Source of the DNA: Trueperaceae bacterium
Lineage (GTDB): Bacteria; Deinococcota; Deinococci; Deinococcales; Trueperaceae
Length of the DNA: 64,000 nucleotides
Assembly (NCBI GenBank): GCA_034521815.1
Contig: JAXHLW010000013.1
Coordinates: forward strand, 1,568,001 to 1,632,000
Direction: 5' to 3'
In this document: in pieces, positions 21,228 to 32,359 of the stretch
Position numbering within the stretch: the first letter of the stretch is position 1
How the letters are laid out: each line of letters starts with the position of its first letter
Notes under the pieces: model-generated
What the model saw: the letters and a program-made list of their open reading frames with translations, nothing else
The model's database searches: none
What the model was told of the DNA's origin: nothing
Position numbers and translations under genes: made by a program

Positions 21228-22648
21228 GCGCCAGCGACCGCGACGGACCGCGCGTCGTGATCGTCGGTGGCGGGATCTCGGGCCTGGCCACGGCGTTCCG
21301 CGTGCGCGAGGCCCTGCCCGGCGCCTCGCTGACCGTGCTCGAGAAGCAGCCCGACGCCGGCGGCATCGCCCGCAGCGACGCGGTCGACGGCTACGTCGTC
21401 GACCGCGGCCCGAACGGCTTTCTGACGAACGTGCCCGAGTCGGTCGAGCTGGCGCGCGCGTTGGGCCTGGAGGACGATCTGGCCCCCGCCACCGACGCGG
21501 CCCGGCACCGCATGCTGTACCAGCGGGGCGAGCTCCGCTCGCTCCCGACCGGACCGGCCGCGTTCCTCACGACCGGACTGCTCTCCCCTGTGGCCAAGGC
21601 GCGCGTCGCGCTGGAGCCGTTCGTCCGTCGGGCGCCGCCGGACGTGGACGAGACCGTGCACCGCTTCGCCCAGCGGCGGCTGGGCCGCGCGTTCGCCGAC
21701 GCGTTCATCGCGCCGATGGTGCTGGGCATCACGGCCGGCGACGCCAGGCTCACCAGCGTAGGAGCGTTGTTCCCTCGCCTCAAGCGCCTCGAGGACGAGC
21801 ACGGCGGTCTGTTCCGGGGGATGCTCGCTCGGCAGCGCGAGGCCCGCGCCCAGCCCGACAGCGCGGGCGGTCCCGCCGGGCCGGGCGGTCGGCTGACCAC
21901 CTTCCGAGGAGGCGGTATCGAACGGCTGATCGACGCGCTGCGCGACGATCTCGGATCGATCGTGCGCACCGGACACGAGGTCACGCGAATCGTGGCCGAC
22001 GCCGGCGGCGACGGCGACAGCGACGGTGCGCGCTACCGTGTCGAGCTCGACGTCGGCGACGTCGTCGCGGCCGACGTGCTGATCGTGGCCACACCCGCCT
22101 TCGTCGCCGCGAAGCTGCTGGCCGACGTCCTGCCGGAAGCGAAGGACGATCTCGAGGCGATCCCCTACGCCGGCGTGCGGGTCCTGGGACTGGGCTACGC
22201 CCGCGAGCACGTACCGCGTCCGCTGGACGGGTTCGGCTTCCTGGTGCCACGCGGCCAAGGCGTCCGCATCCTGGGCTGCCTGTGGACGTCCACGCTGTTC
22301 CCCTGGCAGGCGCCCGAGGGCAAGGCGCTGCTGCGCGTCATCGCGGGCGGCGTGCCGGATCCCGAGTTCGTGCAGCTGAACGACGACGAGGCGCTCGCGG
22401 TGGTCCAGCGCGACCTGGAGACCACCATGGGCATCACCGCGGAGCCCGAGATGGTCCACCACGTACGCTGGGAGAAAGCGATTCCGCAGTACTGGCAGGG
22501 GCACCGCGAGCGGGTGGCGCGCATCATGGCGGCCGCAGGCGCGCGTCCCGGCCTGCTGCTCACGGGAAACGCGTACTACGGCATCGGCGTGAACGACTGC
22601 GCCCGTGACGCGAACCGCGTGGCCGAGGCGGTCAGCGCCTCGGCCTGA
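21224..22648 (+). CDS. hemY: FAD-dependent protoporphyrinogen oxidase (HemY family), copy 2
   Basis: GTGA overlap with hemN; IVGGGISGL, RGPNGF, GFGFLVP, AIPQY, TGNAYYGIGVNDC. Confidence 0.9.
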   Translation: MSASDRDGPRVVIVGGGISGLATAFRVREALPGASLTVLEKQPDAGGIARSDAVDGYVVDRGPNGFLTNVPESVELARALGLEDDLAPATDAARHRMLYQRGELRSLPTGPAAFLTTGLLSPVAKARVALEPFVRRAPPDVDETVHRFAQRRLGRAFADAFIAPMVLGITAGDARLTSVGALFPRLKRLEDEHGGLFRGMLARQREARAQPDSAGGPAGPGGRLTTFRGGGIERLIDALRDDLGSIVRTGHEVTRIVADAGGDGDSDGARYRVELDVGDVVAADVLIVATPAFVAAKLLADVLPEAKDDLEAIPYAGVRVLGLGYAREHVPRPLDGFGFLVPRGQGVRILGCLWTSTLFPWQAPEGKALLRVIAGGVPDPEFVQLNDDEALAVVQRDLETTMGITAEPEMVHHVRWEKAIPQYWQGHRERVARIMAAAGARPGLLLTGNAYYGIGVNDCARDANRVAEAVSASA

Positions 22649-22684
22649 TCCCGGCCCCACCGCTCCCGCGCGGTAGGGCTTCGT

Positions 22685-22713
22685 GCCTCAGGCCACCGCC
22701 GCCTCAGGCCACC
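22685..22713. repeat. Direct repeat (13 bp, period 16) covering the stop codon of the ADP-ribosylglycohydrolase gene
   Basis: gcctcaggccacc-gcc-gcctcaggccacc. Confidence 0.7.
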
Positions 22714-23477
22714 CCGAAGCGCGCCTCGAACGACGCGACGACCTCGCGCAGGCGGTCGTCGAGACGGGCCAGCGTTTCCGTCCGGATCCGGGCCGGCACG
22801 CCGCCGAAGTACGCCTGGGCGATGCCGCCGGCGATGCACGCCATGGTGTCGGCGTCGCCGCCCAGCGAGATCGCCTTGCGCACCGCGTCCTCGACGTCGT
22901 CGGCCTCGAGGAACGCCGTGATCGAGGGCGGCACCGAGCCTTGGCAGGACACGTCGAAGCCGTAGCCGGGCCGGATCTCGTCCAGGGTCGCGCTCAGGTC
23001 GTAGCCGGCGTCACGCTCGATCGCCTCGCGGACCTCGTCCTTCGAGGCGCCGTGGCGCGCCAGGAAGATCGCCAGGGCGACCGCCTGGGCACCGCGGACG
23101 CCCTCGGGATGGTCGTGGGTGACGGCCGCCGTCTCGGCCGCCTTGGCCCAGGCCTCCTCCTCGCTGGCGGCCGCGAAGCCCACCGGGCTCACCCGCATCG
23201 CGGAGCCGTTGCCCCAGCTCCCGTACGGCTCCCGGCGCCCGTCGCGCGCCCAGCGCAGGAAGTTTCCGCCGTAGCCGGCATGCGGGTAGGCGCGGACGTA
23301 AGCGTGGAACAGCTCGACGAGGTCCGTGCCGTCCAGCAGGTGCTCGGCGACGGCGACGGTCAGGACGGTGTCGTCGGTGAAGCGGCTGTCCGGGACCCAG
23401 AGCGGGAAGGCCGTGCGCTTGGTCCCGGCCCCCTCGTGGACCGAGCCGATGACGTCGCCGGCGATCGCGCCGAGCAC
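22704..23477 (-). CDS. ADP-ribosylglycohydrolase (DraG/ARH family)
   Basis: LGAIAGDVIG, FTDDT, GNGSAMR, THDH, GGDADT. Confidence 0.92.
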   Translation of the reverse strand: MLGAIAGDVIGSVHEGAGTKRTAFPLWVPDSRFTDDTVLTVAVAEHLLDGTDLVELFHAYVRAYPHAGYGGNFLRWARDGRREPYGSWGNGSAMRVSPVGFAAASEEEAWAKAAETAAVTHDHPEGVRGAQAVALAIFLARHGASKDEVREAIERDAGYDLSATLDEIRPGYGFDVSCQGSVPPSITAFLEADDVEDAVRKAISLGGDADTMACIAGGIAQAYFGGVPARIRTETLARLDDRLREVVASFEARFGVA

Positions 23478-23479
23478 CC

Positions 23480-24073
23480 TCAGGCCTCCGTCGGCTCGGC
23501 GGACCTCTCCGCCTGACCCGCCGCACCGTCCTTGGCGCGCCGCAGCTCGCGGACCAGCAGGCGCGACACCGCGGTGTGGCAGGTGCTGCAGGTAGGGCTG
23601 GTCCCCAGGTAGGGCGCGAGGTCGGCGAACGAGGTGGCGCCGTGATCCGCGATGACGCGCCGCACGTCGGCGCTGGTGAGCCGGTGGTCGTCGCACACGT
23701 CGTACACCGCCGGCGGCGTCAGCGACCAGCGATCCGGGTCGGCCTGATGCTCGGCGAACCTGGCGTCCCAGAACGCGCGCTCGAAGTCGACCATGGCCAC
23801 CTCGAACTCGGCCATCCCGCTGGCCAGCGTCCGTCCGTCCTGGGCCAGCCGCTCCTCCTCCTCGAGGAACGGAAGCTCGAAGTCGGCCAGGATGTCGACG
23901 GCGTCGAGCAGGAAGGCGTCGAGCTCGTCACGGCGGGCGCGCAGGTCACGGAGCCGCTCGGGCGTCCACGGCGCCTCGGGGGCCTCCACCATCAGCATCG
24001 GGAGCACCAGCTCCTTGGCGTTCTTGGTGGCGGCGACGGCGGCCTCGATGAAGGCACGCTTGTGGCGGATCAT
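23480..24073 (-). CDS. Hypothetical protein with C-terminal BFD-like Fe-S binding domain
   Basis: VCDDHRLT..VRRVIADHGATSFADL....GTSPTCSTC..AVSRLL follows BFD spacing; SD AGGAG. Confidence 0.65.
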   Translation of the reverse strand: MIRHKRAFIEAAVAATKNAKELVLPMLMVEAPEAPWTPERLRDLRARRDELDAFLLDAVDILADFELPFLEEEERLAQDGRTLASGMAEFEVAMVDFERAFWDARFAEHQADPDRWSLTPPAVYDVCDDHRLTSADVRRVIADHGATSFADLAPYLGTSPTCSTCHTAVSRLLVRELRRAKDGAAGQAERSAEPTEA

Positions 24074-24112
24074 CGGCAGCTCCTCATCGGCAGCTCCTCA
24101 TCAGCAGATCCG
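24071..24112. repeat. 14-bp tandem repeat containing SD + ATG at the hypE/BFD junction
   Basis: Minus strand cggatctgctgATG aggagctgccgATG aggagctgccgATG. Confidence 0.85.
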
Positions 24113-25163
24113 CGGCAGCTGCTCTTCGATCGGCATCTCGAGCAGCCTTCGGCTGCCGTACGCGGTCTCGATCAGCGCCACCCCTTCGGGCTTCTTCACG
24201 ATGTCGCCGATGACGGCGGCCTCGCGCCCCAGCGGGTGCGCCTTCATGGCGCCCAGCGCCGCCTCGGTCTGGTCGGGCGGCACGACCATCATCACCTTGC
24301 CCTCGTTCGCGGCCAGCAGCGGGTCGATGCCCAGCATCTCGCTGTACTGCTCGACGATGTCGTGGATCGGTACGGCGACGTCGAACACGCGCAGCCCGAA
24401 CGCGCGCCGGTGCACGACCTCGTTCGCGACGGCGGCCAGCCCGCCCCGGGTCACGTCCCGCATGAAGCGGACGCCGGGCGCGACCTCCAGGACGCGCGCG
24501 ATCAGGCCGTTCAGCGGCGCGACGTCGGACTCCAGCTCCACGCCCAGCTCCAGCCCTTCGCGCCGGGACATCACCGGCGATGCCGTGGTCGCCCAGCGTG
24601 CCGTTGACGAGCACCTTGTCGCCGGGCCGAATCTGGCCCAAGCCCAGCGTCAGGCCGTCGGGAACGAACCCGATGCCGGCGGTGTTCACGAACAGGCCGT
24701 CGCCCTTGCCGCGTTGCAGCACCTTGGTGTCGCCCGCGACGATCTCGATGCCCGCCTCGTCCGCGGTGGCCTTCATGGAGCGGACCACGCGCTCGAGCTC
24801 GTCCATGTCGTAGCCCTCCTCGAGCAGGAAGGCCGCCGTGAGGTAGGCCGGTCTCGCGCCCATCACGGCCAGGTCGTTCACCGTTCCGGCCACCGCCAGG
24901 CGACCGATGTCGCCGCCGGGGAAGAAGGTGGGCGTCACCGTGTGCGAGTCGGTCGCGAACGCGATCCGCCCGCCCGGGTTGGCCACGATCGCGGCGTCGG
25001 TGAGCTCGCGCAGCGGCTCGTTGCTGAAGACCGAGACGAACAGCTCCTCGATCAGCTCCAGGCTGAGCTTGCCGCCCGAGCCGTGCGCCAGCCGGACGGT
25101 GTCGTACCGCGACGTCGTCTTGGGCTGGGCGGCGGTGGCCGCTCCTTCAGGCGGTTTCGACAT
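24101..25163 (-). CDS. hypE: Hydrogenase maturation carbamoyl dehydratase HypE with one-base frameshift at about 24575 (sequence error or pseudogene)
   Basis: AHGSGG, ATDSHTV.P.FFPGGDIGRLAVAGTVNDL, GDTKV in one frame; MRDVTRGG, ANEGK, EQLPRIC in the next. Confidence 0.9.
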
Positions 25164-26403
25164 GGAGCGTCTCCTTGTGCATGCCGTAGACGTACCAGGC
25201 TCGGCAGGTGCCCTCGTGGCTCACCATGCACGGGCCGTAGGGGGCGTCCGGCGTGCACAGCTTGCCGAACACGCCGCACTCGTCGGGCCGGATCTGCCCC
25301 AGCGTCACCTCGGCGCAGCGGCAGCCCTTGGGATGCTCGGCGCCGGCCAGCTCGGCCTCGTCCAGGCTGTCCGCGAAGCGCAGGGCGGCGCTGTACGACC
25401 GGTACGCCTCGCGCAGCTTGTAGCCCGAGGCGGGGATCTCGGCGATGCCGCGCCAGCGGATCGGGGCGAGCTCGAACACCTCGTTCAGCTCCTGCTTGGC
25501 GCGCTCGTTCCCGTCGTACTTGACCAGTCGCTGGTACGGGTTCGCGACGATCGGCTCGCCGTCGCGGATCTGCTCCAGCAGCGACGCGACGGAGGCCAGC
25601 ACGTCCACGGGCTCGAACCCGCCGGCAGCGCAGGCGATGCCCAGCTCGTTCAGGTGCTCGTACACCCGCAGGCCGGTGATCGTCGCGGCGTGCCCCGGCA
25701 GGATGAACCCCTCGATGTCGAAGCCCTCGAGCTGCGGCAGGATCGCGGTGGCCGGCGGCGTGTAGTAGTTCGCCTCGATGATGCTCAGGTTCGCCGGCGC
25801 GCCGCGCTTCAGCATGGCGGCGACGGCGACGACGGTGGTCTCGAACCCGACGGAGAAGAACACCACCTCGCGGTCCGGGTTCTCGCGCGCCAGCTTGGCG
25901 GCGTCGAACACGCTGTAGACGGCGCGTACGTCGCCGCCCTGAGCACGCGCGTCCAGCAGGCTCATGCGCACGTCGCCGCGGCGCTCGCCCTTCAGGGGGA
26001 TGCTGCCGGGCACGGCCAGCATGTCGCCGAACGAGGCGAGGATCACGCCGGGCGTGAGCGCCAGCTGAATCGCCATGTTGATGTACTCGTTGTCGCACAC
26101 GCAGACCGGGCAGCCCGGCCCGGCGAGCACCTCGACGCTGCTGGGAAGAAGGTCGCGAAGCGCGTAGCGGCCGATCTCGTGCTCGTGCGTGCCGCAGATG
26201 TGCATCAGCTTGGTGGGGCGGCCGATCTCGCCTGCGAGCTCCGCGATGCGCCTCTGCAGGCGCCCGACCAGCTCGGCGTCCTTGTACGTCTCGGGCCGGA
26301 AGTCGAACGCCGGCCCCGCCTGGGGGTCGGCGCTCTGGGCTCCGCCGCTCTGGGTTCCACGGTCGGGCGCCGGCGCGACCGCCACGTCGTCCCTCTCAGG
26401 CAC
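25147..26403 (-). CDS. hypD: Hydrogenase maturation protein HypD
   Basis: CGTHE, GPGCPVC, GFETT, PGH, C-terminal Cys cluster GCRC...C...C...GPCMVS.EGTC. Confidence 0.95.
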   Translation of the reverse strand: MPERDDVAVAPAPDRGTQSGGAQSADPQAGPAFDFRPETYKDAELVGRLQRRIAELAGEIGRPTKLMHICGTHEHEIGRYALRDLLPSSVEVLAGPGCPVCVCDNEYINMAIQLALTPGVILASFGDMLAVPGSIPLKGERRGDVRMSLLDARAQGGDVRAVYSVFDAAKLARENPDREVVFFSVGFETTVVAVAAMLKRGAPANLSIIEANYYTPPATAILPQLEGFDIEGFILPGHAATITGLRVYEHLNELGIACAAGGFEPVDVLASVASLLEQIRDGEPIVANPYQRLVKYDGNERAKQELNEVFELAPIRWRGIAEIPASGYKLREAYRSYSAALRFADSLDEAELAGAEHPKGCRCAEVTLGQIRPDECGVFGKLCTPDAPYGPCMVSHEGTCRAWYVYGMHKETLHVETA

Positions 26404-26626
26404 GGGTCTCGGGCTCCAGGTAGCGCTGGATCAGGCGCAGGTTGGCCTTGGCGTCGTCCGGCTCGATCTTGTCGATGGCGAAGCCGGCGTGCACGACGAC
26501 CCAGTCGCCCGGTTTCAGGTCCTCGATCAGGCCGATGAAGCAGTGTTGCGTCGCCTGGCCCAGTCGGATCGTGCAGCTGTCCTGGTCGATGACGTCGACC
26601 ACCTCGTGGGGAATCCCTAGACACAT
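26396..26626 (-). CDS. hypC: Hydrogenase chaperone HypC/HupF
   Basis: MCLGIP N-terminus, GDWVVVHAGFAI. Confidence 0.95.
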   Translation of the reverse strand: MCLGIPHEVVDVIDQDSCTIRLGQATQHCFIGLIEDLKPGDWVVVHAGFAIDKIEPDDAKANLRLIQRYLEPETRA

Positions 26627-26712
26627 GTCGAGCCTCCAGCTCTGGTGCCGTGCTCGTGAATCTGCAGCCCGTAGACGCCCGACACCCCCGGCGCCCGCTG
26701 GTGGACCGGTGC

Positions 26713-27432
26713 TCAGGCCAGCTTCGCGGCGCGCTGTTCGCGCAGCCAGGCCAGCCAGGGAGCCATGCCTTCGCCCGTCCTCGCGGAGAGCTCGAACAGC
26801 TTGGCGTTCGGGGTGACCTGGCGCACGCTTTCCAGCGCGCGATCGCGATCGAACCCGACCGCCTCCGCGATGTCGATCTTGTTGATGATCACCGCGTCCG
26901 CGTCCTTGAAGATGCGGGGGTACTTCAGCGGCTTGTCCTCGCCCTCGGTGACCGAGAGCATCGTGACCCGCAGGTCCTCGCCCAGGTCCCAGGCGGCCGG
27001 ACAGACCAGATTGCCGACGTTCTCGATCACGACGACGTCGAGGTCGTCGAGGTCCAGGCCGTCCACCGCGCGGGCCACCATCTCGGCTTCCAGGTGGCAC
27101 ACCGCGCCGGTCACGATCTGGACGGACGGCGCACCGGCCCCGTGCAGGCGGACCGCGTCGTTGTCGGTCTCCAGGTCGCCGACGACGACGCCGATGGCGA
27201 GGTCGCTCGCGAGCTCCCGGACGGTGCGCTCCATCAGCGCGGTCTTGCCCGATCCGGGCGAGGAGACGATGTTCAGCACCAGGCGTCGCGCGAACCGGGT
27301 CCGGTTCTCGGCGGCCACCCCGTCGTTGTGGGTCATCAGCGACTTCTGTACCTGGACGACGCGCATGTCCGTGCCCGCGGACGTGCCGTGGGCACGGACG
27401 CGTACATCGCGTGTCGCGACCTTCGTTTCCAT
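26713..27432 (-). CDS. hypB: Nickel-insertion GTPase HypB
   Basis: SSPGSGKT, CHLEA, ENVGNLVCPA, EGEDKPLKYP. Confidence 0.95.
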   Translation of the reverse strand: METKVATRDVRVRAHGTSAGTDMRVVQVQKSLMTHNDGVAAENRTRFARRLVLNIVSSPGSGKTALMERTVRELASDLAIGVVVGDLETDNDAVRLHGAGAPSVQIVTGAVCHLEAEMVARAVDGLDLDDLDVVVIENVGNLVCPAAWDLGEDLRVTMLSVTEGEDKPLKYPRIFKDADAVIINKIDIAEAVGFDRDRALESVRQVTPNAKLFELSARTGEGMAPWLAWLREQRAAKLA

Positions 27433-27475: not shown

Positions 27476-27823
27476 TCACACCACTTCGAGATGGGCGAGC
27501 TGTAGCTCGCGCCCTTGGCGGAGGTCGGCGGACGGCGTCCCGCAGGTGGGGCACAACGCGACGCCGTAGCGGTTGTCGAGCTCGAAGCTGGCGTCGCACA
27601 GGCCGCAGTGCGCGATGGCGGGCAGGTAGTCCACCTCGAGCCGCGCATCCTCGGCCATGGTGCCGAGGCGAGCTCCGGAGAACGCGAACTCCAGCGCCTC
27701 GGGAACGACGCCCGCGAGGGCGCCGATCTCGAGGTGGATCGCGTCGATGCGTGTCGCGCCGTCGTCCCGCGCCGTCTTCTCCGCGAGGTCCAGCATGCTC
27801 ATCACCAGCGAGAACTCATGCAT
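27476..27823 (-). CDS. hypA: Nickel chaperone HypA
   Basis: MHEFSL, two CxxC motifs, GRELQL. Confidence 0.95.
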   Translation of the reverse strand: MHEFSLVMSMLDLAEKTARDDGATRIDAIHLEIGALAGVVPEALEFAFSGARLGTMAEDARLEVDYLPAIAHCGLCDASFELDNRYGVALCPTCGTPSADLRQGRELQLAHLEVV

Positions 27824-28373
27824 GGGCCAACACGATCTCCTCGGCGCTGAACACGTCGTCGGCCCGCATCTCCGGCCGGACGATCTGGGGCGTGACGCCG
27901 TGCGTTTCGAGCTCGCGAAGCACGACGGTGGCCAAGGCGTCCATGCGACCACGCACCGTCGGCGTGAGTCCCACGCCCACCTCGCCGCTCTCGAACTCCA
28001 GGGGAGCGACGCCGATGCCGACGATCGTCACGTCGGGCAGGTCCCCGTACAGGTCCATCGCGGTGAGCAGGTCGGGAACCTCCCACTCGTGAGAGGACAG
28101 CTTGCCGTAGCCGATCTCGTCGGGAACCTCGCCCCGCCCGAAGCGATACACCTTTCCGGGCGGGGCGGCGACGGCGTCGACCAGCACGACGTGCCGGTAC
28201 TCGGCGATCAGGTTCAGCAGCTGCCAGCCCAGCGTCCCGCCGTCGACGATCTCGACGTGGTCCGGGAAGGCGTACTTGCTGCGCAGGTAGTGCATCAGGT
28301 GCACGCCCGCGCCCTCGTCGCCGTAGTACACGTTTCCGACGCCGAGCACGAGGAGCGGGCGTGCGTCGCTCAT
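27816..28373 (-). CDS. hyaD: Hydrogenase maturation endopeptidase (HyaD/HupD family)
   Basis: VLGVGNVYYGDEGAGV, DGGTLG, VDAV, SSHE. Confidence 0.92.
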   Translation of the reverse strand: MSDARPLLVLGVGNVYYGDEGAGVHLMHYLRSKYAFPDHVEIVDGGTLGWQLLNLIAEYRHVVLVDAVAAPPGKVYRFGRGEVPDEIGYGKLSSHEWEVPDLLTAMDLYGDLPDVTIVGIGVAPLEFESGEVGVGLTPTVRGRMDALATVVLRELETHGVTPQIVRPEMRADDVFSAEEIVLAHA

Positions 28374-29230
28374 GAGGTCTCGTCCCTCTTCGAATCGCGC
28401 GTCGCGCGCTTGGTCGTGCGCTTCGCCGTCGGCGCGCTGCTCGGCTCGACGGCGTCGACCTCTTCGGCCCCCGCTTCGCGCGTGGTGGCGTCCTGGGCCG
28501 CGAAGCCGGAGATGATGCCCTCGACCAGCATGTTGCCGGTCCGCATGCTGTTCCAGACCGCCATGTAGATGTGGACCATCGTGAACACGACGAAGAACCA
28601 CATCGCGACGTGATGGACCATGCGGACGTTGGCGAGGCCGCCCAGCCAGACTTGGATCGGGCTCAGCAGGTTCGCGCCGAACGTCGCCAGCCCGCCCTGC
28701 ACGTACGGTGCCGCGATCAGGATGCCGGTGACGCTGATGACCAGCAGCGCGGCGTAGAGGAGCGTGTAGACGAGGTACTGAAGCGGGCCGTAGTTGCTGT
28801 ACGTGAAGTGCGGGTGCTCGCGCTTCATCAGCAGGTAGAACGCCAGCTGATCGCGCCACGCCTTCCAGTTGAACAGGATCGGCGCCATGCGGAGCTCCGC
28901 ACCGAGACCCAGCTTGCCCTCCCGGTTGATGAACAGGAACTGGTAGATCCGGGCCAGCGTGAACGCCAGCAGCAGCCAGCCGGCGGCCACGTGCCAGCCG
29001 CGAATCTGCGCCAGCATGAAGTTGTCGGCCGTTGCGACGCCCAGGTTGCGTGCGAAGAACGGGTTGGCGAGGTAGATGCCGCTCAGCACCAGCCAGATCA
29101 GCAGCGCGTTGCGGACCCAGTGCGTGATCCGCACGAACCGTCCGAAGACGTACACCACCATCTTCGGGCGGCCCTTGCGCTCCATCACGACCGCTCTGGG
29201 CCTACCGGCACGGGTCGTGTCGGTCGTCAC
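28370..29230 (-). CDS. hyaC: [NiFe] hydrogenase b-type cytochrome subunit
   Basis: VRITHW, RGWHV, YGPLQ, RMVHH..MWFFVVFTMVHIYMA heme-ligand His pattern. Confidence 0.9.
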   Translation of the reverse strand: MTTDTTRAGRPRAVVMERKGRPKMVVYVFGRFVRITHWVRNALLIWLVLSGIYLANPFFARNLGVATADNFMLAQIRGWHVAAGWLLLAFTLARIYQFLFINREGKLGLGAELRMAPILFNWKAWRDQLAFYLLMKREHPHFTYSNYGPLQYLVYTLLYAALLVISVTGILIAAPYVQGGLATFGANLLSPIQVWLGGLANVRMVHHVAMWFFVVFTMVHIYMAVWNSMRTGNMLVEGIISGFAAQDATTREAGAEEVDAVEPSSAPTAKRTTKRATRDSKRDETS

Positions 29231-29233
29231 GCG

Positions 29234-30925
29234 TCACACCTCCACTTCGTGGTGCGCGATCTCCTCGCCGTCGCGGTTCAGGATGTGCACCGCGCAGGCG
29301 AGGCAAGGATCGAACGAGTGGATGGTGCGCACGACCTCGAGCGGCTGGGTGGGGTCGGCCATCGGCTGTCCGACCAGCGCGGACTCGTACGCGCCCCGCT
29401 GCTCGCGGCCGTCCTTCGGGCTGGCGTTCCAGGTCGAGGGAACGACCGCCTGGTAGTTCGAGACCGATCCGCCCTGAACGGTGAGCCAGTGGCTCAGGCT
29501 GCCGCGCGGCGCTTCCGCCATCGCCCAGCCGGGCCCGTCCTTGGCGTCGTAGCGGTTGAAGAACCGGTCGTCGCCGTTCGAGACGTTCGCGGTGAGGTTC
29601 CCGATCATGCTGGGCACGTAGTCGGAGACGATCTTCGTCTCGAGTCCGCGGGCCACGGTGCGGCCGACGGTGGAGTACCAGAACTCGAACGGAACCCCGA
29701 GCTGCGAGGTGTAGTCGTCCATGATCGTACGGACCGACTCGTTCCCGCCGGCGTAGGCGATCAGCATCCGCGCCAGCGGGCCGACCTCGACCGGCATGCC
29801 GTCGTAGCGCGGCGACTTGATCCAGGAGTAGCTGCCTTCGGTCTGAAGGGTGTTGTCGTCCGCGAAGCCGGTGTAGGCGGGGTTGGTCTGGCCGTCGAGC
29901 GGGTGGAGCGAGTCCTCGCCGCCTTCGTACGTGTACCAGGAGTGCGCGACCTCTTCGCCGATGAGCATCGGGTCGATCGTCCGCACCGTATCCAGGTCGC
30001 GGTCGACGATCAGTCCGGGCTGGAGGAAGAACGCGCGGTTCTCCCACGGGCGCTCGTCCAGCGAGATGGCGCCGAAGCTCATGTAGTTGCGCAGGCCGCC
30101 GCCTTCGCCGGCGAGCGCCTCTTCACGGTAGCGATCGCCGATCAGGGCCATGTCGGGCAGGTACGCCCGCTCGACGAAGTCGGCCGCCTTGGCCATGAGG
30201 AACTGGTACTCGGCGATCCGGTGCGCATCCAGGGCGTCGCGGGCGGAGGTGATGCCGCCGACGATCAGGCTCTGCGGGTGGGGGTTCTTGCCGCCGAAGA
30301 TCGCGCTGGCCTTGGCGCTGAGCCGCTGGATCGCCAGGTTGTCGAGGTAGTGCGAGGCGACGATCAGGTTCTCTTCCGGCGTGAGCCGGTACTTGGGGTG
30401 TCCCCAGTAACCGCCGGCGAACGGTCCGAGCTGGCCGCTCTGGACGAACGCGAGCAGCCGCTCGGCGACCGCGCGATAGTGGCTGACCGAGGCGTTGTAC
30501 GGCTTGTCGTGGTACTGCATCGCGACGTCGGTCGCGGCTTGCGGATCGGCGTCGAGCGCGCTGACGACGTCGAACCAGTCCATCGAGTGCAGCTGGTAGA
30601 AGTGCGTGGTGTGGTCGTTCACCAGCTGGGCGGCCCAGATCAGGTTGCGAAGCATCCGGGCGTTGGGGGGGATGGTGACGCCGTACGCGCTCTCGGTCGC
30701 CTCGACGCCGCGCTCGTAGTGGTGGTAGGTGCAGACGCCGCAGATGCGTTGCGCGAACAGGCCGACGTCCTTGGGATCGCGACCCCGCATGATGCTCTCG
30801 AAGCCGCGGAAGGCGGTGCTGCTGCTGGCGGCCTCCTCGACCGTGCCGGCGTCGCCGACCTCGATCTCGATGCGGAGATGCCCCTCGATGCGGGTAATGG
30901 GATCGATGACGTGTTTAGCGGCCAC
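29234..30925 (-). CDS. hyaB: Group 1 [NiFe] hydrogenase large subunit
   Basis: DPITRIEGH, QRICGVC (L1), SFDPCLACAVH (L2) plus cleavable tail. Confidence 0.97.
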   Translation of the reverse strand: MAAKHVIDPITRIEGHLRIEIEVGDAGTVEEAASSSTAFRGFESIMRGRDPKDVGLFAQRICGVCTYHHYERGVEATESAYGVTIPPNARMLRNLIWAAQLVNDHTTHFYQLHSMDWFDVVSALDADPQAATDVAMQYHDKPYNASVSHYRAVAERLLAFVQSGQLGPFAGGYWGHPKYRLTPEENLIVASHYLDNLAIQRLSAKASAIFGGKNPHPQSLIVGGITSARDALDAHRIAEYQFLMAKAADFVERAYLPDMALIGDRYREEALAGEGGGLRNYMSFGAISLDERPWENRAFFLQPGLIVDRDLDTVRTIDPMLIGEEVAHSWYTYEGGEDSLHPLDGQTNPAYTGFADDNTLQTEGSYSWIKSPRYDGMPVEVGPLARMLIAYAGGNESVRTIMDDYTSQLGVPFEFWYSTVGRTVARGLETKIVSDYVPSMIGNLTANVSNGDDRFFNRYDAKDGPGWAMAEAPRGSLSHWLTVQGGSVSNYQAVVPSTWNASPKDGREQRGAYESALVGQPMADPTQPLEVVRTIHSFDPCLACAVHILNRDGEEIAHHEVEV

Positions 30926-30928
30926 GGT

Positions 30929-32176
30929 TCACTGCTCCTTCTGCTTGCCCTGGCGCTGCTCCTGGGCGGACTTGATGGCGGTGGCTCCAGCGTGAGCCGC
31001 GACGCCGACGGCGGCCGCTCCGAGCACGACCTTGCCGATGGTGTCGGCGTTGGCGTCGGTGCCGAACGGGGTCGAGTACACACGCCCGGCGAGGGGCTGC
31101 TCGAACGGGGTCATGGTGTCCCAGAAGCCGGGCTCGCTACAGCCGATGCAGCCGTGGCCGGCCATGATCGGCCAAGACGCGCCCTCGTTGAAGCGCACGA
31201 CGCCGCAGTTGTTGAACGCCATCGGGCCTTTGCAGCCGACCTTGTACAGGCAGAGGCCGTCCTTGAGACCTTCGATGTCGGTCCAGCCCTCGACGAACTC
31301 GCCGGCGTCGAAGTGGCCGCGGCGCTCGCACTTGTCGTGGATGCGATCGCTGTACGCCCAGAGCGGCCGGTTGAACGCGTCCAGCGACGGCAGCCTGCCG
31401 AACAACGCGTACTCGAGGATCGTTCCGGTCACGTTCGTGCTGGACACCGGGCAGCCGGGCAGGTTCACGACCGGCTTGGAAACGCCGCGCTGACCCAGGA
31501 AGTCGCCGACGCCCAGCGCCGTGGTGGGGTTGGGGCGCGCGGCGGGGATCCCGCCGTACGCGGCGCAGGTGCCGGCGTTGATCACGGCGGCCGCGTGCGT
31601 GGCGACGTGCTCCACGATCCGGGTTCCGGTATGGCCGTCGGGGCCGATGGTGAGGAAGTTACCGTCGTCGCCGATCGGGACGGAGCCTTCGAACACCGCG
31701 ATGTACTGTCCGTCGAAGCGCTCGATCGCCGCCTCGAGCACGGCGTCGGCCTGGTGGCCGGACGGGGCCATCAGCACCTCGGCGTACTCGAGACTGATCA
31801 GGTCGAGGATCAGCTCGTCCACGCCGGGGTTCGTGTTGCGGATGAGCGCCATGCTGTTCCCGGTGCACGACTGCAGCTCTTGCCAGATGACCGGGATGCG
31901 GGTCGCGACCTCTTGGGCGCGAGCGACGCGCAGGTCGAACATGGAGGGAAGGCCGAGGGTCGCGGTCGTGACGGCGGACATCTTGAGGAAGTCGCGGCGC
32001 GAGAGGCCGCGGCGCTTGAGCACGTCTTCGAGCGAGACGTCCTTGAGGGGCGCCTGCGCCTCGAGGCGATCGAGGTTGGCGTCGGCCTCCGCGGCCAACA
32101 TCTCATAGTGCTCCAGGGTTCTCCGGTCGAGATTCGCCTGGGCGTCGGGGTCGTGCTTCCTCGGTGTTTGCGTCAT
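30929..32176 (-). CDS. hyaA: [NiFe] hydrogenase small subunit (Tat signal, C-terminal TM anchor)
   Basis: SRRDFLK, CTGN, GTCAAYGG, PGCP, HDKC, CLYKVGCKGP, CIGC. Confidence 0.97.
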   Translation of the reverse strand: MTQTPRKHDPDAQANLDRRTLEHYEMLAAEADANLDRLEAQAPLKDVSLEDVLKRRGLSRRDFLKMSAVTTATLGLPSMFDLRVARAQEVATRIPVIWQELQSCTGNSMALIRNTNPGVDELILDLISLEYAEVLMAPSGHQADAVLEAAIERFDGQYIAVFEGSVPIGDDGNFLTIGPDGHTGTRIVEHVATHAAAVINAGTCAAYGGIPAARPNPTTALGVGDFLGQRGVSKPVVNLPGCPVSSTNVTGTILEYALFGRLPSLDAFNRPLWAYSDRIHDKCERRGHFDAGEFVEGWTDIEGLKDGLCLYKVGCKGPMAFNNCGVVRFNEGASWPIMAGHGCIGCSEPGFWDTMTPFEQPLAGRVYSTPFGTDANADTIGKVVLGAAAVGVAAHAGATAIKSAQEQRQGKQKEQ

Positions 32177-32359
32177 GCGCTCCTCCTCGCGCTGTCCGTC
32201 CCCGACGTTTCGCCGAGGCGACCGAGGGGCTCCCCGGTCCACGATCACGGTCTAGGCTGCGGAACTCCTGCGTCGATCTCGGGTCTTCGCCGTCAGGTGA
32301 GTGCGGCAACCTCGCTTACGTGATGCGACGAAAGTAGCAGCCGGAGGCGTCGCCGTCGC

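Follow-up and report, generated by a model that had tools for sequence, protein, structure and literature searches.

Several cytoplasmic proteins, the rubredoxin HoxR/HupI, HyaE/HoxO, HyaF/HoxQ and HybE, act on the precursor of the [NiFe] hydrogenase small subunit, which carries a twin-arginine translocation (Tat) signal, and on its iron-sulfur (Fe-S) clusters. All four are type-specific factors, and the usual client of accessory genes found with a single hydrogenase type is the small subunit; such accessory proteins decide whether a [NiFe] hydrogenase matures in air or in a foreign host. A module from another setting, the BFD domain of the bacterioferritin-associated ferredoxin Bfd, has a helix-turn-helix-like fold with two ligand loops and four cysteine ligands arranged as C-x-C ... 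C-x2-C. Here we analyze a window of 64,000 nucleotides (nt) from a Trueperaceae bacterium of the phylum Deinococcota (GenBank assembly GCA_034521815.1, contig JAXHLW010000013.1, positions 1,568,001 to 1,632,000), in which a [NiFe] hydrogenase operon encodes, after hypE, a protein of 197 residues that we call P197 (open reading frame (ORF) 23480-24073, minus strand). Judged from its sequence, P197 is an undescribed, lineage-restricted accessory protein that joins a variant BFD domain to a helical domain without a fold match. We propose, with a probability of about one half, that it is a dedicated cytoplasmic maturation factor of a membrane-bound, Tat-exported, cytochrome-b-linked group-1 [NiFe] hydrogenase with a C-x-G-N small subunit, the hydrogenase being called group-1 and 1b-like from homology.

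The gene context of P197 was compared in two overlapping sets of loci, 21 from the genome_contigs set and 30 from species-representative genomes. P197 lies directly after hypE in all 21 loci of the first set; in the second it adjoins hypE in 25 loci (one with a gap of ~780 nt) and hypC in the other five. The spacing from hypE or hypC is often 2-30 nt. In the Meiothermus family the genes run small subunit, large subunit, cytochrome b, protease, hypA, hypB, hypF, hypC and P197, with hypD and hypE located elsewhere. P197 is thus present in two different gene orders and stays with this operon. All loci belonged to a hydrogenase/hyp cluster, and the suggestion of the initial annotation that an undescribed, hydrogenase-linked accessory gene had been found is well supported by these neighborhoods and by the 32 genomes in which P197 accompanies one hydrogenase type.

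These 32 genomes come from a survey of 364 genomes of the phylum, with E<1e-30 as the threshold for P197 and an identity of at least 62% for orthologs of the small subunit. P197 matches were observed in 35 genomes, or 33 after subtraction of two in which large ORFs matched weakly through their BFD portion, and a small-subunit ortholog of this hydrogenase type was likewise present in 33. In the only genome with the small subunit and no P197 (G268), the contig breaks off within hypE (L080), and the only one with P197 and no small subunit (G192) has a decayed locus with a frameshifted P197. hypD was identified in 69 of the 364 genomes; 37 of these have no small subunit of this type, and 36 of the 37 have no P197 (genome G325 enters the tallies as one hypD-positive, P197-negative genome). 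An example is genus g28, in which HypC, HypD and HypE share 58-68% identity with those of the window, hypE is the final gene of the cluster and a universal-stress-protein-like gene follows, with no P197. On this distribution of genes, P197 appears to track one hydrogenase type and not the Hyp system. The carriers are kin, from ~12 genera in three families; since the genomes are relatives, the co-occurrence counts overstate the independent support.

The hydrogenase accompanied by P197 has an atypical small subunit. The precursor in the window (30929-32176, minus strand, within ORF 30929-32248; PF10518, PF01058 and PF14720, with a twin-arginine motif) reads C-T-G-N-S (31853-31867, minus strand) where aligned HoxK chains and standard enzymes have C-T-G-C-S, and we take the replaced cysteine to be a ligand of the proximal cluster. 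Glycine occupies the position of the second 'extra' cysteine of O2-tolerant enzymes. The C-[TS]-G-N-S motif was present in all ten P197 loci that include the small subunit, and among the 120 closest small-subunit homologs C-x-G-N was found in 81, one of them a Bacillota enzyme, and C-T-G-C[ST] in 36 (motif not found in three). One homolog of the Meiothermus family carries the source name Meiothermus cerbereus. Moreover, a conserved helix-like stretch of ~40 residues (~32000-32176, minus strand; E-x-Y-E-x-L-A-A-E-A-D-x-x-L-D-x-L-E) precedes the twin-arginine motif. This N-extension is specific to the C-x-G-N clade, the C-T-G-C relatives being 30-40 residues shorter, and both the extension and Asn107 are invariant in a 24-row alignment (A5).

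Outside the phylum, the nearest named relatives of the small subunit are 'Candidatus Hydrogenisulfobacillus filiaventi' (P0172; 51% identity, C-D-G-N-T) and enzymes of Helicobacter and Campylobacter (50-55%). According to PMC10080006, the hydrogenase of 'Ca. H. filiaventi' and the nearest named relatives belong to group 1b, which is classed as O2-sensitive; the operon of 'Ca. H. filiaventi' continues after hypC with genes for a protein annotated as '4Fe-4S ferredoxin domain protein' and for a conserved protein without known function, a parallel from outside the phylum, and its small subunit is said to be without a Tat signal. In alignment A5, unlike that last statement, this subunit has T-R-R-D-F-L-K-W behind such an extension.

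A word-indexed search returned 70 clusters homologous to P197, of 165-233 residues and mostly unnamed or automatically named 'bacterioferritin-associated ferredoxin', and pairwise ratios of nonsynonymous to synonymous substitution rates (dN/dS) among P197 orthologs were between 0.11 and 0.26; both results identify the ORF as a genuine gene rather than an accidental open frame in DNA with 73% G+C. An exhaustive HMMER pass over 1.84 billion representatives identified 21 P197 clusters, 18 of them at E<=1e-10. The named genomic records were all Trueperaceae metagenome-assembled genomes or 'uncultured bacterium', and by these searches P197 forms a small family that appears restricted to Deinococcota. 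In its tree, the Trueperaceae sequences and those of the other two families form two clades with full support, the pattern that vertical inheritance would give. Literature searches on BFD-like or Bfd proteins and hydrogenase maturation, and on Trueperaceae and hydrogenase, found no name or description of the family.

The motif of P197 is C127-D-D-H130 ... C162-S-T-C165. Residues 126-173 match Fer2_BFD (PF04324) with E 5.7e-5 and 23.8 bits, against a gathering score of 26 bits. Two family members exceed that score (P0079, 28.5 bits; P0010, 27.7 bits), the Meiothermus-family member of locus L056 has no match, and besides Fer2_BFD and a sub-threshold DUF5324 no other Pfam family was detected in P197 at E<=0.01. 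C127, H130, C162 and C165 are invariant in alignments with a mean column identity of 31-48%, and 82 of 90 family proteins contain C-x2-H-x31/32-C-x2-C; the eight proteins without it are seven fragments (44-146 residues) and P0076, a protein of 184 residues matched over residues 1-114 only. Asp125, Asp128 and Asp129 vary within the family.

In an AlphaFold2 model built from a 33-row alignment (predicted local distance difference test score (pLDDT) 95, predicted template modeling score (pTM) 0.76), P197 consists of helices at residues 5-30, 38-46, 53-78 and 87-111, a compact domain at 124-181 and a terminal helix, giving a predicted layout of a helical N-domain (residues 1 to ~115) and a BFD-fold C-domain (124-181). 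The C-domain superimposes on P. aeruginosa Bfd (4e6k_G) with Z 6.6 and a root-mean-square deviation of 2.0 Å over 56 of 57 residues, and Foldseek matched it to 6e6s_A (prob 0.99, TMt 0.77). The family profile found Bfd chains among PDB sequences at E 0.0055; the BFD domain alone gave only chance matches there (E 0.53 and above), and an ESM Atlas feature search with P197 gave no usable match. TAL effectors, which headed the PDB profile search (E 1.8e-9), were rejected as a repeat artefact, with single repeats of at most 4.7 bits summed over 11-23 'LCxAHGLTxxQV' repeats. The N-domain, folded separately, reached a pLDDT of 93.5, and no convincing fold match to it was found (VIA-align over 48,161 chains, best Z 5.0; Foldseek, best E 2.1), which does not prove a new fold.

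These data agree with the initial annotation in two respects, a helical N-terminus of unknown kind and a BFD-like domain in which C-D-D-H replaces CxC and CxxC is kept. Of the ligation by three cysteines and Asp or His suggested there, the histidine is left as the candidate, being invariant with the three cysteines, and the aspartate falls, as Asp128 and Asp129 vary. It is slightly more probable than not that the four residues hold a [2Fe-2S] cluster with 3Cys+1His ligation.

Neither a signal peptide nor a twin-arginine motif was found in P197. Since P197 has no export signal and the enzyme is Tat-exported, contact between them is possible only in the cytoplasm, while the enzyme matures, unless P197 were to hitch-hike. 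In the proposed mechanism, P197 would encounter the still cytoplasmic precursor of the small subunit, ahead of its export by Tat, and by analogy with known factors might help to insert, protect or proof-read its unusual Fe-S complement. A Pfam scan detected none of HoxR/HupI, HyaE/HoxO, HyaF/HoxQ and HybE in the operon of the window, which leaves a type-specific role in small-subunit maturation open.

Because the small subunit is the usual client of such type-specific accessory genes, P197 was paired with the small-subunit precursor in a complex prediction. The score was 0.57 (runs 0.55, 0.59 and 0.57) against 0.01 for the best of three controls and was rated 'weak support'; at least 68% of contacts agreed between runs, and the pLDDT of the partner was at least 81. 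In the benchmark, 116 of 157 solved complexes and 2 of 215 mismatched pairs attained the mark, and of these, 18 of the solved complexes and both mismatched pairs did so with scores of 0.60 or less, counts that apply only roughly here because our own alignments were used. In our reading, the predicted contact makes it modestly more likely that the small subunit is the target of P197. A more far-reaching version would see in P197 and the C-x-G-N small subunit an unrecognized way to build or maintain the proximal Fe-S cluster of a membrane-bound uptake hydrogenase in strictly aerobic Deinococcota, with a 3Cys-1His [2Fe-2S] P197 docking on the N-extension and delivering or repairing a non-standard cluster at the 3Cys+Asn site before export. 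The odds of this version are long; if it were true, the cluster chemistry of the clade, and possibly its behavior towards O2, would be unlike that of all characterized hydrogenases.

Several points weigh against P197 as a maturation factor of the small subunit. Its function and its metal content are both what we infer. The window's P197 stays below the Fer2_BFD gathering score (23.8 against 26 bits), and BFD folds lacking a cluster exist; the C-terminal domain of GlpD, which is not known to carry one, is a near-equal match to the C-domain (Z 6.4). The arrangement C-x2-H...C-x2-C would also suit zinc, and a structural or transferable zinc ion or another metal at the site is possible, if doubtful. 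The gene stands among the hyp genes and not beside the structural genes, and part of the co-occurrence may come from a single operon block having been passed down as a unit. A complex score of 0.57 lies in a zone where a pairing that was not already likely is wrong in more cases than it is right, the prediction gave no interface, and the small-subunit precursor was the sole partner paired. Finally, the related Bacillota operon appears, from PMC10080006, to use a different Fe-S protein, which would mean that C-x-G-N small subunits do not always require P197.

The position of P197, always right after hypE or hypC and often within 2-30 nt, could instead point to the Hyp machinery itself, which P197 might serve as a [2Fe-2S] redox partner or iron donor for HypC, HypD or HypE in Fe(CN)2CO assembly, for example by passing electrons to the [4Fe-4S] relay of HypD. 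We know of no established electron source for cyanide transfer on HypCD, BFD is a ferredoxin-type module, and P197 has a weak match to the central domain of NifU (E 0.0012). This role is nevertheless unlikely, since P197 is missing from nearly all hypD-positive genomes without this hydrogenase type (36 of 37, genus g28 included), the Meiothermus family keeps it with the structural genes and hypC although hypD and hypE are elsewhere, and the pairing with the small subunit, the one pairing run, passed, if weakly. An extra structural or electron-transfer subunit, co-exported with the hydrogenase dimer on the Tat signal of the small subunit, would account for the strict co-occurrence with the structural genes, the ferredoxin-like domain and the weakly supported predicted contact. 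It is very improbable, however, as the row of maturation genes stands between P197 and the structural genes, the enzyme already has the usual three-cluster route to cytochrome b, and in one genus a DUF302 protein of cytoplasmic type is joined to P197 or comes directly after it. The 3Cys-1His sites of [2Fe-2S] proteins are typically labile and used in sensing or transfer, as in mitoNEET and in IscR-type ligation, and P197 might accordingly be a redox, iron or O2 sensor that gates hydrogenase expression or maturation, with a labile cluster as the switch. The carriers are aerobic and PMC10080006 places the enzyme's nearest named relatives in O2-sensitive group 1b, but we give a sensor role very little credence, since no DNA-binding or signaling domain was detected in P197 and the N-domain had no match beyond Z 5.0 and a Foldseek E of 2.1.

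A regulatory role was also proposed in the initial annotation, on account of the gene next to P197. This gene encodes an ADP-ribosylglycohydrolase of 257 residues (22704-23477, minus strand) whose GTG start at 23477 lies 2 nt past the P197 stop; the tight, same-strand arrangement described there is confirmed. PF03747 covers the protein with 124.3 bits (gathering score 26.2; profile positions 3-283 of 287). The sequence contains TDDT and GGDADT, presumably metal-binding motifs, which appear intact, and a dN/dS of 0.31 indicates purifying selection. The label 'DraG-type' goes too far, as the protein is a superfamily member and not a DraG equivalog (TIGR02662: 54.5 bits, cut-off 337); the score for Tri1 was 35.7 bits (cut-off 490). 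The hydrolase adjoins P197 in 3 of the 30 loci (2 of 21 in the genome_contigs set), namely in the window's genome and in two further species of the same genus with P197 81-82% identical, which comes close to adjacency in this genome alone. In a same-genus relative without the hydrolase, hemY follows P197 after 160 nt, so the hydrolase was inserted between P197 and hemY. Within the family, the hydrolase is matched in 11 of 128 genomes; orthologs of 69-74% identity lie on contigs other than that of the hyp locus (G252, G254, G344), and orthologs of 52-58% identity occur, with varying neighbors, in genomes that lack both hypD and this small subunit (G251, G266, G287). By its distribution, the hydrolase appears to be a separate gene, recently inserted in one small sub-lineage and not part of the hydrogenase system, and it is probably co-transcribed with P197 where the two are adjacent.

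The 2-nt spacing, the metal-binding motifs that look intact and the purifying selection would be consistent with the idea that the hydrolase and P197 together switch H2 metabolism by ADP-ribosylation, comparable to the action of DraG and DraT on nitrogenase. This is barely credible in view of an adjacency limited to three loci of one genus, of orthologs off the hyp locus or in genomes without this hydrogenase, and of the low DraG score (54.5 against 337). Moreover, NifH (PF00142) was not found in the window's genome, which is 83.5% complete, in a search whose control was positive for 14 of 14 genomes. Searches of the same genome for DraT (PF07357) and ART (PF01129) gave no match, but their controls were silent, so that this result shows nothing. 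The ADP-ribosylation idea can be dropped. Two sirtuin (SIR2) genes were observed in this genome, one ~19 kb before the start of the window (G000:C13:1548876-1549343) and one on another contig (G000:C12:147421-148020); it is conceivable that their products are the source of substrate for the ADP-ribosylglycohydrolase.

The window has a G+C content of ~70%, so that open frames are abundant, and its minus strand carries one clear operon between 22704 and 32248. The small-subunit gene is followed, all on the minus strand, by those for the large subunit (29234-30925; 563 residues, PF00374 with 644.7 bits, best solved relative 3myr_B with 535 bits), a cytochrome b subunit (28370-29230; PF01292, 93.3 bits) and a maturation endopeptidase of the HycI/HupD type (27816-28370, start approximate; PF01750, 85.3 bits). 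These are followed by hypA (27476-27820, start approximate; PF01155, 104.6 bits), hypB (26713-27432; cobW/HypB, 83.6 bits), hypC (26396-26650, start approximate; PF01455, 70.9 bits), hypD (25147-26403; PF01924, 407 bits), hypE (24101-25163; AIRS N and C domains and a C-terminal PRIC), P197 (ATG at 24073, TGA at 23482-23480) and the ADP-ribosylglycohydrolase, on which a hemY-like gene of the plus strand converges, ending at 22648. The spacer between hypE and P197 (24073-24100, minus strand) consists of two tandem copies of a 14-nt unit with a GAGGAG ribosome-binding motif, and the A of the P197 start codon is the last letter of the second copy. One contig of a public run (X3) has a single copy at this place and is 14 nt shorter. 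A scan of 22400-24300 found no promoter or terminator and is uninformative for the Trueperaceae organism of the window.

The hypE gene of the window is read in two frames, owing to a 1-nt insertion at 24576/24577 relative to the closest relatives (L001, L002). The extra base is absent from contigs of three public runs from two studies (X1, X2 and X5), as a one-letter deletion in X1 and via loose ends in X2 and X5. The X1 contig is also one base short at 23960, where the frame of the window is clearly the conserved one, which marks X1 contigs as prone to insertions and deletions. An assembly error, or else a mutation private to this genome, probably accounts for the frameshift. As the initial annotation stated, hypF is absent from the operon: several relatives have a 2.3-kb hypF between hypB and hypC, and only ~60 nt separate these genes in the window. 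The absence carries no meaning, since a full-length hypF is present among unrelated neighbors on contig C1 of the same genome (ORF of 798 residues, 735 bits against TIGR00143).

Additional genes accompany P197 in some relatives. In the Meiothermus family, a DUF302 gene of 136 residues lies right after P197 (L056:8519-8929; 25.3 bits, gathering score 23), and in one genus the two form a P197-DUF302 fusion of ~313 residues (P0084; L059:178-1119, minus strand), although the fused forms gave no DUF302 match at E<=0.01. This DUF302-like tail of 130 residues (P0084, L059) is the only fusion seen; larger fusion proteins were not found at E<=1e-5, which is weak evidence. The best DUF302 candidate in the window's genome had E 0.097 and was treated as absent. 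The gap of ~780 nt between hypE and P197 in G247 (L044) possibly contains an extra gene, and G248 (L031) has a second HupD-like protease segment (43% identity) just downstream of P197. At the decaying operon of G192 (L061; G192:C60:21000-37000), the small- and large-subunit genes are gone, only part of cytochrome b is left and the frameshift interrupts P197. Directly downstream of the operon in one Meiothermus-family genome (L056:9500-13750), CRISPR-associated genes resembling cas1, cas2 and cas4 and a Csx-like ORF were recognized by eye from the translations.

Taken together, the initial annotation is partly supported, its observation being confirmed and its interpretation half right. P197 marks a hydrogenase clade without the canonical proximal-cluster cysteine; the clade occurs in Meiothermus and in Trueperaceae that are aerobic and tolerate salt and desiccation. 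Should P197 hold a 3Cys-1His cluster and have the small subunit as its target, the maturation scheme would gain a component, and P197 would point to unexplored Fe-S chemistry in an environmentally common H2 oxidizer.

Among described proteins, Bfd of P. aeruginosa (Fer2_BFD; 4E6K, 6E6Q-S) has the same fold as residues 124-181 of P197 and keeps the second ligand pair, C-x2-C. It differs in having C-x-C where P197 has C-x2-H, in the absence of the 115-residue helical N-domain, and in its context, which is bacterioferritin and not hydrogenase. The central [2Fe-2S] domain of NifU and the NifU/Nfu-like genes of group 1h operons likewise place a BFD-type module in settings of metallocluster assembly, and P197 matches positions 136-199 of TIGR02000 (NifU) with E 0.0012 and 18.4 bits, against a cut-off of 273; P197 has, in contrast, neither an IscU-like nor an Nfu domain and a different ligand set. 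The hydrolase shares the PF03747 superfamily with DraG and Tri1, but is shorter, at 257 residues, and an equivalog of neither. With HoxR/HupI, HyaE/HoxO, HyaF/HoxQ and HybE, P197 has in common that its gene belongs to one hydrogenase type, whereas the folds differ and the function of P197 is one that we infer. The enzyme it accompanies has the same architecture of small subunit, large subunit and cytochrome b as the group 1b hydrogenases HynABC/HydABC of Wolinella, Helicobacter and 'Ca. H. filiaventi' (HynA), with a small subunit 50-55% identical, and it differs from them in carrying C-x-G-N in place of C-T-G-C and an N-terminus longer by ~40 residues.

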